DNA of 39,893 bases from a virus. The notes beneath the pieces were generated by a model. That model was not told where the DNA came from. It was given only the letters and a program-made list of their open reading frames with translations, and did no database searches. Where the stretch lies: UHGV virus genome UHGV-1364246. The stretch is one strand, 5' to 3'. Of this stretch, positions 1-39,893 are shown one piece after another. Numbering within the stretch: the first letter of the stretch is position 1; the number at the start of each line of letters is the position of its first letter. Both the position numbers and the translations under genes were made by a program.

Positions 1-1019
1 GCGCCAGCCGCTTCAGGACGCAGACCACCATGACCCATAGCGTATTTACCAACAATCAGGTCGCCCTGAGCATCGACGTCACGGTCACGTTCCAGCGCCA
101 AGTCACGCAGCTTCACAGTACCCACAGCAGAACGGTGAGAGAACAGACCCACAACGTTGTCCATAGCAACTTTAACGTCGCCAGTAGCAGTTGCCGGGAA
201 TGCGTGTTTCTGACCGGAAGCAATAGTGATACCATCTTCACCACGAGTCTCACCAGCGCCACCTTGTACCAGATGCGGAACTTCAACAACAACGAAGCCC
301 ATCACGTTACGGATGTTACCAGTCTCTGGGTCAATCAGCGCAGCATAGTTAGCAGCGTTAGGCATCAGAGCAGCAAGGATTGCAGAGTAGTTGTCCGGCG
401 TGGTGTAGAAGTAACGGTCGCCAGCAGGAACGTAGTTGGAGGTCAGCTTCGCACGAGCAATGGTCAGTTGACCAATGATTGCTTCACCCAGTTTAGCTGG
501 GGTGTCGAGGTCAGCTTTCTTACCTACTTCAAGTACGGACGCAGTGCCCAGACCAGCAATGTTCTCGTTGGATGCAGCCGGGAGGTTACACAGGATAGCC
601 ATTTCAGCCAGAACCGCACCATCGGCAGCGATAGCCAGAGCTTCACCCAACTGGTTGGAATACTCGCCAGCCACGTCATAGTGGTTCATCGCGTCTTCAA
701 TGTCGAAAATCATCACATCGGCAGTCAGCAGACCATCAATGGTAATCACTTTCTCGGTATGTTTGATACCTTTACGTTTATCGGACAGTCGCTCACCCGG
801 AGCCAGATACACACCAGAGGTGCGACCCATGACCGGGAACTGAGCAGACTTACCGTTCTGAATGGTACGGACAATATGCTTGTCAGCAGTTACAGAGCGG
901 CGAGTGAATGCGGTCAGGACTTCACCAGCAAATACCTTCAGGAACAACGCCAGAGCGTCGGAACTGGATTTGCCTTTACCTTGGTCTGTACCAATTTTCT
1001 GACCCGGAACGTTTGCCAT
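1..1019 (-). CDS. Major capsid protein (gene 10A), N-terminal 339 codons; ORF runs off the window start and continues at 39893
   Basis: Minus-strand ATG at 1017-1019 with AGGAGA 8 nt upstream; translation MANVPGQKIGTDQGKGKSS...LFLKVFAGEVLTAF...KYAMGHGGLRPEAAGA closely matches recalled T7 gp10. Absent from the ORF track because no stop lies in this segment. Confidence 0.9.
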   Translation of the reverse strand, partial: MANVPGQKIGTDQGKGKSSSDALALFLKVFAGEVLTAFTRRSVTADKHIVRTIQNGKSAQFPVMGRTSGVYLAPGERLSDKRKGIKHTEKVITIDGLLTADVMIFDIEDAMNHYDVAGEYSNQLGEALAIAADGAVLAEMAILCNLPAASNENIAGLGTASVLEVGKKADLDTPAKLGEAIIGQLTIARAKLTSNYVPAGDRYFYTTPDNYSAILAALMPNAANYAALIDPETGNIRNVMGFVVVEVPHLVQGGAGETRGEDGITIASGQKHAFPATATGDVKVAMDNVVGLFSHRSAVGTVKLRDLALERDRDVDAQGDLIVGKYAMGHGGLRPEAAG

Positions 1020-22719: not shown

Positions 22720-23045
22720 TGACTGTAGGTGTTGGTGTCTTATGGTTGAGACTGTAGGTTAGTGACTTATGGTCTGATACAGATAGAGACTCAAAGAAGA
22801 CCCATAGTCCCAACCTATCGTCCTGACCATCAGCCATAGCCTAGACCTATCGTAGACCTAACGTCTTGACCATTGGTCCAACCTTATGATAGACTGGGGT
22901 AGGGCCTTTGGTCTGGACTGAAAGAGGGCCTATGGGGAGACTTGAGGTTCTTGAACTGTGAGATGTGGTCTCAAACTTTTGGTCCAAAACTCATCGTCAT
23001 TACTGTAGGTCACAGCCACTGTAGGTCAAGGACCGTAGGTCAGGC
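22720..23045. repeat. Genome-end region: collapsed terminal repeat flanked by arrays of the short direct repeat (C)YGTAGGT; inferred physical left end at about 22963
   Basis: Five copies of ctgtaggt/ccgtaggt (22723, 22752, 23003, 23019, 23033), analogous to T7 ACCTAAAG arrays; minus-sense TCTCACAGT...CCCCATAGG at 22963 downward resembles the first bases of T7. Confidence 0.5.
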
Positions 23046-38880: not shown

Positions 38881-39108
38881 TTAAATCATACTCATTAGGA
38901 CATATCCCTCAGCGATGTCACCAACGTCAGCAATGTGGACAACCTTACGTGCTACCTGTTGTCCAGTATACCCGTTGTCCCACTCATTCAGGATAAGCCA
39001 GTCGCCAACCTTAAAGTCCCGGTCGTTAAGTCTCAGCTCTGCTGTCTTTAGACCTAGTTGTACCGGACCAAAGTGCTGGCGGTGAATCTTCAGGTTGTGA
39101 CTAGCCAT
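38881..39108 (-). CDS. Small PUA/ASCH-like protein (DUF3850-like) inserted between tail tube A and B genes
   Basis: 75 aa; HNLKIHRQHFGPVQLGLKTAELRLNDRDFKVGDWLILNEW resembles the DUF3850 pattern; ATG overlaps the gp11 stop (TAATG) with GGGAGGGA upstream. Confidence 0.55.
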   Translation of the reverse strand: MASHNLKIHRQHFGPVQLGLKTAELRLNDRDFKVGDWLILNEWDNGYTGQQVARKVVHIADVGDIAEGYVLMSMI

Positions 39109-39674
39109 TAGTCCCTCCCGATGTCGGACATCATGTTGTAGCGACCAGTGTCCATCTCGTATTCCATGACCTGCTGATAGAGTTCTGCTTCCTGCTCACG
39201 AAGGTATAGCTCTGACTCTGGGCTACCGAAGAACTTAGCGTTGAACTCACGGCTTGCCTTGGTAACGATGTAGTCCCTGAATACCACAGGCATCTCAGAG
39301 AACGGTTTCATCTCAACAAGCTCTACCGTTATAGGGTCGGTGAAAGTGGTTGACTGAGTGGACAGGTCGTACAGGTATCCACCCATGTTGCTGTAGTAGC
39401 TGGTGGCCCCGGCAGTCATTACACGAAGGTATGACGGCAGGAATCGAATCCTGTTGTCTTGGACATCAGGTGTCAGGACAGCAGCTTCATTAATGTTAAA
39501 GTTCCATCCTTTAGCTTGGACCTGACGATTGACACGATGCAGGATACGTTGAGCGTTCGAGACATCAGCGTTGCCCTCATCAAGCTGTAGGACTGCTGGT
39601 TCACCGATAGCAGCTAACATATCGTTGATGGCATCTAAGTCATCGTTAGCATTCAGTGGAATGTATTGAGCCAT
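39108..39674 (-). CDS. Tail tubular protein A (gp11-like)
   Basis: 188 aa; LAAIGEPAV...NAQRILHRVNRQVQAKGWNFNI...FRDYIVTKASREFNAKFFGSPE...MEYEMDTGRYNM matches recalled T7 gp11. Confidence 0.9.
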   Translation of the reverse strand: MAQYIPLNANDDLDAINDMLAAIGEPAVLQLDEGNADVSNAQRILHRVNRQVQAKGWNFNINEAAVLTPDVQDNRIRFLPSYLRVMTAGATSYYSNMGGYLYDLSTQSTTFTDPITVELVEMKPFSEMPVVFRDYIVTKASREFNAKFFGSPESELYLREQEAELYQQVMEYEMDTGRYNMMSDIGRD

Positions 39675-39692: not shown

Positions 39693-39735
39693 AGCAAAAA
39701 ACCCCTCAAGCACCCGAAGGCACCCAAGGGGTTTC
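39693..39735 (-). terminator. Tphi-like late terminator between capsid and tail tube A genes
   Basis: Minus-sense CCCCUUGGGUGCC-UUCG-GGUGCUUGAGGGG hairpin followed by UUUUUUG; same position and form as T7 Tphi. Confidence 0.8.
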
Positions 39736-39737
39736 AA

Positions 39738-39890
39738 TTAGTTGTTGGACTCAGCCAGTTTAGCGGCCCTGTTCGCAGCACGAGTACGCGCAGCTTTCTG
39801 TTGAGGAGTTAGAGTCTCCTCTTCAGGTGCAGCCGCTACTGTAGCGACGTTAGGTTGGCTAAAGGTGCTTACGCCGCTGGGCTGAAAACC
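39738..39890 (-). CDS. Minor capsid protein 10B C-terminal extension, reached by -1 ribosomal frameshift at GGTTTTC
   Basis: Slippery heptamer G GTT TTC at 39884-39890 (minus sense). The -1 frame reads FQPSGVSTFSQPNVATVAAAPEEETLTPQQKAARTRAANRAAKLAESNN-stop (stop 39738-39740), resembling the recalled T7 10B tail. Confidence 0.6.
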   Translation of the reverse strand, partial: GFQPSGVSTFSQPNVATVAAAPEEETLTPQQKAARTRAANRAAKLAESNN

Positions 39891-39893
39891 AGT
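39869..39893 (-). CDS. Major capsid protein 10A, C-terminal 8 codons plus stop (continuation of 1..1019 across the circular junction)
   Basis: Joining position 1 to 39893 keeps the frame: ...EAAGA-A-LVFSPAA-TAA, stop at 39869-39871; total about 347 aa, close to T7 10A. Confidence 0.6.

Follow-up and report, generated by a model that had tools for sequence, protein, structure and literature searches.

The -1 frameshift in gene 10 of bacteriophage T7, described by Condron, Atkins and Gesteland in 1991 (as cited in PMC5009743 and PMC1635266), is the obvious point of comparison for capsid genes of T7-like phages that end in two alternative C-termini. About 10% of translations yield the extended product 10B (PMC1635266), and the 10B tail is located on the capsid surface (PMC8811829). 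The G_GU of the T7 slip site is treated in a recoding review as an accepted variant of the X_XX of canonical heptamers, and the same review mentions that a CCCC within the transcription terminator, over 200 nt downstream of the site, stimulates the shift from a distance in an unexplained way (PMC5009743). The protein gp10B has been reported dispensable for growth of T7 and T3 (PMC3276506). Closer to the genome studied here, the -1 frameshift of K1F, the type species of Kayfunavirus, adds 44 triplets, and GFP fused to the end of g10b results in stable fluorescent virions (PMC6277420); the g10b site of K1F has been used again for display (PMC13370021). The 2008 GenBank record of phage EcoDS1 (EU734172) carries the note 'may be translated via slippery sequence to obtain the longer C-terminal tail of gp10', together with a misc_feature 'region of similarity to gp10B'. 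For the Kluyvera phage Kvp1 (Berlinvirus), mass spectrometry found peptides of the -1 frame in a 43.6-kDa band, with the shift placed at TTTTCA (PMC2579914). The records of T7, T3 and Kvp1 give 10B as a joined CDS.

We analysed the complete 39,893-nt stretch of the virus genome UHGV-1364246 (the window), and hold with high confidence that gene 10 of this K1F-like (Kayfunavirus) coliphage has a programmed -1 ribosomal frameshift of the T7 10A/10B type. Our own analysis contributes the anatomy of the site, the homology of the extension, the selection on the tail in its -1 frame and the lack of a start codon of its own. That the shift occurs and its product enters virions is expected by analogy with K1F, Kvp1 and T7; an efficiency of roughly 10% would follow the T7 example, and the tail would be exposed on the surface if T7 and the K1F display work are a guide. 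The T7-type capsid frameshift in this genome is genuine but already known: the EcoDS1 record annotates it, published work on K1F has made use of it, and T7 and Kvp1 provide proof from the protein itself.

The arbitrary start of the window cuts gene 10, a minus-strand gene that reaches position 1 and continues at 39893. The 5' part of this major capsid protein gene occupies 1..1019 (ATG at 1019..1017) and holds codons 1-339 plus two bases of codon 340, while the 3' end at 39869..39893 supplies the last base of codon 340 and then L341 V342 F343 S344 P345 A346 A347 and the stop TAA (39871..39869); translation of the joined ends shows that codon 340 (GCA) straddles positions 2, 1 and 39893. When the reverse complements of the last 494 nt and the first 1,100 nt are joined, 10A reads as a protein of 347 aa with the C-terminus ...RPEAAGALVFSPAA, its gene finishing CTG GTT TTC AGC CCA GCG GCG TAA. 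The protein belongs to the 10A-type family (Pfam Gp10A-like PF21703, E 3e-105), and matches T7 10A (2xvr, E 1.7e-146) and a kayfunavirus capsid (9vvq) in the PDB. Capsid proteins 100% identical to the 10A of the window occur among the IMG/VR loci, and EcoDS1, TM1, ASO2B and others share the C-terminus ...GALVFSPAA*. Upstream of the gene, a phi10 promoter at 1121-1143 on the minus strand (CTAAACTATCACTATAGGGAGAC) closely resembles the promoter consensus that the ASO2B record gives for the RNA polymerase of K1F-type phages. Downstream, gene 11 (Pfam Tube) starts at 39674, and between the tail genes 11 and 12 a 75-aa ORF (38881-39108, minus strand) encodes a DUF3850/ASCH-domain protein (Pfam E 1.9e-19), which is called unknown or hypothetical in the records of EcoDS1, TM1, PRF-SP2 and ASO2B. 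K1F apparently is without this ORF, gene 12 following directly after gene 11; it is a small variable insert in the structural module.

The continuity of the capsid gene depends on the two ends of the window being joined in the real genome, and the first-pass annotation had named a failure of this kind as one finding that would overturn its reading. A 693-nt query spanning the junction matched no fewer than 158 phage records, as a single unbroken piece and with 96-98% identity. All of them are Kayfunavirus-like (K1F, EcoDS1, ST31, TM1, SH3 and others), and the window is accordingly a rotated and reverse-complemented kayfunavirus assembly. The terminal direct repeat is found in a sole copy at about 22,785-22,963 of the window, as recognised by homology to the 178-bp repeat of EcoDS1, and both EcoDS1 genome ends map there as well. 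This placement of the repeat and both genome ends at one site indicates a circularised assembly whose physical ends lie near 22.9 kb and not at the window edges. By these comparisons the window is a K1F/EcoDS1-like kayfunavirus genome in reverse complement, circularised with a collapsed repeat and cut open within gene 10. The central 20 kb are only about 94% identical to the nearest record over about 80% of their length, and the genome is therefore a different isolate or species carrying the same frameshift element. The ends are thus contiguous, as the earlier reading had supposed, but its statement that the arrangement becomes visible only in a circular window needs a small correction: the heptamer, the whole extension and the last codons of 10A all lie inside the last 156 nt, so that circularity is needed only for the link to the capsid body at 1-1019.

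The shift site G GUU UUC lies at 39884..39890 on the minus strand and equals the heptamer of T7 gene 10, with the codon of Val-342 in the P site and that of Phe-343 in the A site. GTT and TTC are codons of the zero frame, and 12 nt separate the heptamer from the stop codon of 10A. K1F, Kvp1 and others, like T7, have this heptamer in the homologous place. The site departs from a strict X XXY YYZ heptamer, as only two of three bases match on re-pairing in the P site (G_GU stands in place of X_XX), and a regular expression for the strict form X_XXY_YYZ found no match in the last 200 nt of 10A. Direct reading of the 20 nt upstream of the heptamer (CCTGAAGCGGCTGGCGCACT) likewise revealed no GGAG, GAGG or AGGA that could act as a Shine-Dalgarno-like stimulator. 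The -1 extension QPSGVSTFSQPNVATVAAAPEEETLTPQQKAARTRAANRAAKLAESNN spans 39738..39884 on the minus strand, with 48 sense codons from CAG (39884..39882) to the stop TAA (39740..39738), and belongs to a -1 ORF of 55 codons that reaches 131 nt past the 10A stop. Predicted 10B has 391 aa, 44 more than 10A, and its predicted tryptic peptide across the junction of 10A and tail is YAMGHGGLRPEAAGALVFQPSGVSTFSQPNVATVAAAPEEETLTPQQK. The first-pass annotation, made from the sequence alone, had placed both the end of 10A (...ALVFSPAA-stop at 39869) and the heptamer (G GTT TTC at 39884-39890) correctly to the base on the minus strand; its -1 frame of about 47 codons ends at 39738 exactly as it stated, although the actual count is 48. 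It had also proposed that the T7 10A/10B arrangement is kept, and this holds, with the same heptamer at the homologous Val-Phe position and a tail homologous to that of T7 10B. The alignment with T7 10B that it recommended as a check (BLASTP with the tail) gives 23/36 identities (64%, E 2e-11).

Most ribosomes would read ...CUG GUU UUC AGC CCA GCG GCG UAA and release the 347-aa 10A. A minority would slip back by one base at the heptamer: the P-site tRNA-Val would re-pair from GUU to GGU and the A-site tRNA-Phe from UUC to UUU, and 48 codons of the -1 frame (CAG CCC AGC ...) would then be decoded. The predicted product is the 391-aa minor capsid protein 10B, in which SPAA, the last four residues of 10A, are swapped for a 48-aa tail. 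10B would co-assemble with 10A in the capsid shell and carry its tail on the outer surface.

The openness of the -1 frame by itself is not significant, as 18% of mononucleotide shuffles of the 144-nt extension are stop-free by chance, and in the +1 frame of gene 10 runs of as many as 62 codons are free of stops. The significance of the -1 ORF therefore rests on homology and on comparative evidence. The 48-aa tail alone gave no matches in a tblastn search of the phage collection, for which a short and compositionally biased query combined with the low-complexity filter is the likely cause. In a panel of 19 sequences from seven genera (18 GenBank loci and the window) the -1 frame continues without a stop for 119-263 nt beyond the end of 10A, against 7-52 nt for the +1 frame. 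A whole-tail alignment that was not anchored on any motif has 19, 18 and 33 variable columns at codon positions 1, 2 and 3, respectively, of 35 ungapped, with mean pairwise differences of 0.28, 0.31 and 0.51. The distances from slip site to stop range from 140 to 185 nt and always differ by multiples of three. Together, the third-position bias and the in-frame indels read, in this alignment, as the signature of translation in the -1 frame.

The association between slip site and extension was assessed in a sample of 78 IMG/VR loci, fetched with the 10A protein alone, plus the GenBank panel, which together comprise 75 distinct 3' ends. We defined a slip-prone site as GTT TTY or the T3-style ..A AAG; T7 (with EAARTRA) and the N GTT TTC variants of PPWS4, L038 and L039 were scored manually ahead of the Fisher test. 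Among the 3' ends with a slip-prone site, 48 possess the extension and three do not; among those lacking such a site, none possesses the extension and 24 are without it, the latter class including three cases in which the -1 frame merely enters gene 11. The co-occurrence is strong (Fisher p 1e-16), with counts that are not phylogenetically independent. Tail-less relatives encode the same Val-Phe in a non-slippery spelling (GTC, GTA or GTG TTC). As judged from these sequences, the -1 extension appears only with a slip-prone site, a pattern that is unambiguous in spite of the phylogenetic dependence of the counts.

These observations bear on the possibility that the -1 ORF is an untranslated relic, in other words a 3' UTR between 10A and T-phi that is open by chance, with no 10B made. 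Such a reading draws on the shuffling result, on the dispensability of 10B in T7 and T3, and on at least one close relative in which the tail is out of frame. In vB_EcoP_F (NC_047808; IMG/VR locus L022) a 1-nt deletion changes TAAG to TAG at the 10A stop, at position 21 counted from the start of the heptamer; it puts the conserved tail in the +1 frame, and a -1 shift would add just 16 unrelated residues. Either the sequence contains an error here or 10B has been lost naturally. The extension of another locus, L025, also appears disrupted. On the other hand, variation biased to third positions and in-frame indels across genera, together with the strict co-occurrence of slip site and extension, are at odds with a relic, and the near-identical g10b of K1F is in experimental use (PMC6277420, PMC13370021). 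We consider it very improbable that the extension of the window is untranslated.

Alternatively, the fusion could be made at the level of transcription, if the phage RNA polymerase inserted an extra U in the run of four U and thus produced the same V-F-Q... fusion in a subset of mRNAs. The resulting protein would be indistinguishable from the product of a -1 ribosomal shift, our computations fit both origins alike, and the conserved element is essentially just the GTTTTC run. However, a run of four U is far below the homopolymer length that gives appreciable polymerase slippage. Work on recoding moreover treats the T7 event as a ribosomal one at a tandem-slippage heptamer (PMC5009743), and relatives of the T3 type slip at ..A AAG, a classic codon for ribosomal slippage in the A site. 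Polymerase slippage is, in our judgement, less probable still than an untranslated extension.

Some records annotate the tail as a separate small protein translated from its own start: it has its own CDS in Dev2, 101120B2, PPWS4, phiCFP-1, YpP-R and fPS-26, under names such as 'gp10.1', 'head protein gp10B' or 'hypothetical protein'. In Dev2 and 101120B2 it is the alternative kayfunavirus module discussed below that is listed as a separate hypothetical protein. Yet the 55-codon -1 ORF of the window contains no in-frame ATG, GTG or TTG and is therefore reachable only from the 10A frame. Mass spectrometry of Kvp1 shows the tail joined to the capsid body in the 43.6-kDa band (PMC2579914), and the GFP fusion of K1F labels virions (PMC6277420), so that independent translation has next to no probability. 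Three further mechanisms are rejected: readthrough of the stop codon (the zero frame after TAA yields APLANLTSLQ-stop and not the conserved peptide), a +1 shift (that frame is shut 10 nt after the 10A stop), and a T3-type 10B with a lysine-codon shift and a Big_2 domain (no A AAG stands in frame close to the end of 10A, and the tail has no Pfam domain).

Two RNA structures follow the shift site, the more conspicuous being the T-phi terminator at 39694..39735 on the minus strand. Folding and a terminator scan revealed a 17-bp G+C-rich hairpin (39735..39698) followed by a U-run, which begins 3 nt after the 10B stop and includes a CCCC at 39731..39728. The hairpin (AACCCCTTGGG...GAGGGGTTTTT) is conserved in 14 sequences from six genera, always 3-13 nt after the 10B stop. 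Following the T7 precedent, the CCCC of T-phi is a candidate stimulator in the window by its presence only. In ASO2B (L003, about 1405-1514), vB_EcoP_F and MT1B1P3 some 95 nt extra are inserted between T-phi and gene 11, which are absent from the window.

The second structure is a candidate stem-loop of 10 bp at 39843..39878 on the minus strand, with the arms AGCGGCGU.AG (39878..39868) and CU.ACGUCGCU (39853..39843). It starts 5 nt after the heptamer and overlaps the 10A stop. The stem appears in the minimum free energy (MFE) structure of 204 nt, a fold whose z-score of -3.7 is due largely to the terminator, and is absent from the MFE structure of 84 nt (z -1.2). Eight sequences of the clade contain no compensatory pairs in the stem; the changes are one-sided only (G-U to A-U, C-G to U-G, and one break in K1F). 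Other genera do not conserve it and fold different hairpins, and Rfam has no family for the region.

The most conserved block of the tail, LTPQQKAARTRAANRA (39765..39812, minus strand; consensus LTPxQKAARTRAAN[KR]A), is common to Kayfunavirus, Teseptimavirus, Berlinvirus, Pektosvirus, Helsettvirus, Przondovirus and one Teetrevirus. Within this block 15/16 third, 5/16 first and 4/16 second codon positions vary, a partly circular test, given that the motif itself served to anchor the block. Pfam recognises no domain in the tail, and no chain in the PDB contains it. The dispensability of gp10B in T7 and T3, together with the out-of-frame tail of vB_EcoP_F, implies that 10B is not indispensable; nevertheless, the core motif is maintained across genera despite the laboratory dispensability of 10B. 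The sequence comparison suggests that the basic 16-residue core is under purifying selection in at least seven T7-like genera and may have a specific ligand or role, for which assembly, surface binding or the countering of a host exclusion system may be candidates. As for the efficiency of the shift, the stem overlapping the 10A stop might set it instead of, or besides, a distant T-phi element of the T7 type. The combined proposal that the short tail is not a passive appendage and that shift efficiency in kayfunaviruses is possibly set by the clade-specific stem (39878..39843) is speculative, and we regard it as rather unlikely.

The same slip site does not always lead to the same tail. Other kayfunaviruses (L006, L017, L018, L024-L035, L082, L086 and L087) possess an identical GGTTTTC with a different -1 extension of about 87-90 aa, ending ...SYSRRTNSLYFKA...VRSFNVSFTN and without a Pfam match, and other T7-like clades that shift at ..A AAG bear Big_2 Ig-like domains. 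The slip site thus works as a socket for interchangeable C-terminal modules. Two IMG/VR metagenome contigs (L054 and L070) have the site GGTTTTT A and a -1 frame without a stop for at least 1,199 nt beyond that of 10A, up to the edge of the locus retrieved, which could represent a very large frameshift-fused capsid decoration or a downstream gene that is in frame by chance.

With respect to annotation, 10A and, as a joined CDS with ribosomal slippage, 10B should both be listed as products of gene 10 in this genome, which should itself be re-linearised at the terminal repeat to keep the capsid gene whole. Many public kayfunavirus records omit 10B, label a CDS of 10A length 'minor capsid protein', or list the tail as a separate hypothetical protein. 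In PRF-SP2 (L002) and in PDB entry 9vvq the label 'minor capsid protein' is given to the 347-aa product of 10A length, and a note in the PRF-SP2 record says 'minor capsid protein 10B', while no frameshifted CDS is annotated there; the label is also found on many Salmonella PRF-SP, STP-SP and CRW-SP records. Its use for the 10A-length product looks like a propagated naming error. In K1F-type phages, moreover, the site is the established position for surface display at low copy number. Scientifically, the frameshift described here is nothing new, and the questions of its stimulator and of the role of the tail are old ones.

Compared with canonical bacterial -1 frameshift cassettes, such as those of dnaX and of IS911/IS3, the locus shares tandem -1 slippage on a heptamer and two proteins in a fixed ratio. 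It differs in the absence of a strict X XXY YYZ and of a Shine-Dalgarno-like element in the 20 nt upstream, and the 3' element in the window is a candidate stem, T7 being described as relying on a distant terminator element (PMC5009743). The T3/phiYeO3-12-type 10B likewise arises by a -1 shift near the end of gene 10 and is a C-terminally extended minor capsid protein; however, the shift takes place at a lysine codon (C CCA AAG) and not at Phe, and instead of a short KAARTRA tail the protein gains 86 aa that form a Big_2 Ig-like domain (Pfam E 6.5e-08). Kvp1 stands nearer, with a GGTTTTCA shift site, a 48-aa tail, an identical LTPQQKAARTRAANKA core and T-phi right after the tail, although its tail linker is unrelated in sequence and a strong nested hairpin, absent in the window, follows its slip site.

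The element of K1F and EcoDS1 shows no substantive difference from that of the window. From the heptamer through T-phi, 3 of 194 nt differ in K1F, a member of the same genus, and 2 of 194 in EcoDS1, and TM1 is identical; the tail peptide is the same in EcoDS1 and departs by one residue (A to D) in K1F, and the net extension of 44 triplets reported for K1F equals the difference between 391 and 347 in the window. T7 itself has G GUU UUC at the equivalent Val-Phe pair, likewise a few codons short of the end of 10A, and shifts in the -1 direction too; it also shares the tail core ETLTPxQ[KE]AARTRAAN[KR]A and a T-phi hairpin with CCCC directly after the 10B stop. In contrast to the window, its tail has 56 aa (versus 48 aa) and its slip site lies 176 nt (versus 152 nt) from the 10B stop, the N-terminal linker of the tail has diverged with a 7-residue gap, 10A ends in KVE and not SPAA, and the capsid DNA is about 75% identical in the 3' part. 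The features of the T7 type, namely a capsid gene, the heptamer, an overlapping -1 ORF without a start codon, a homologous tail and the CCCC of T-phi, are all present in the window.
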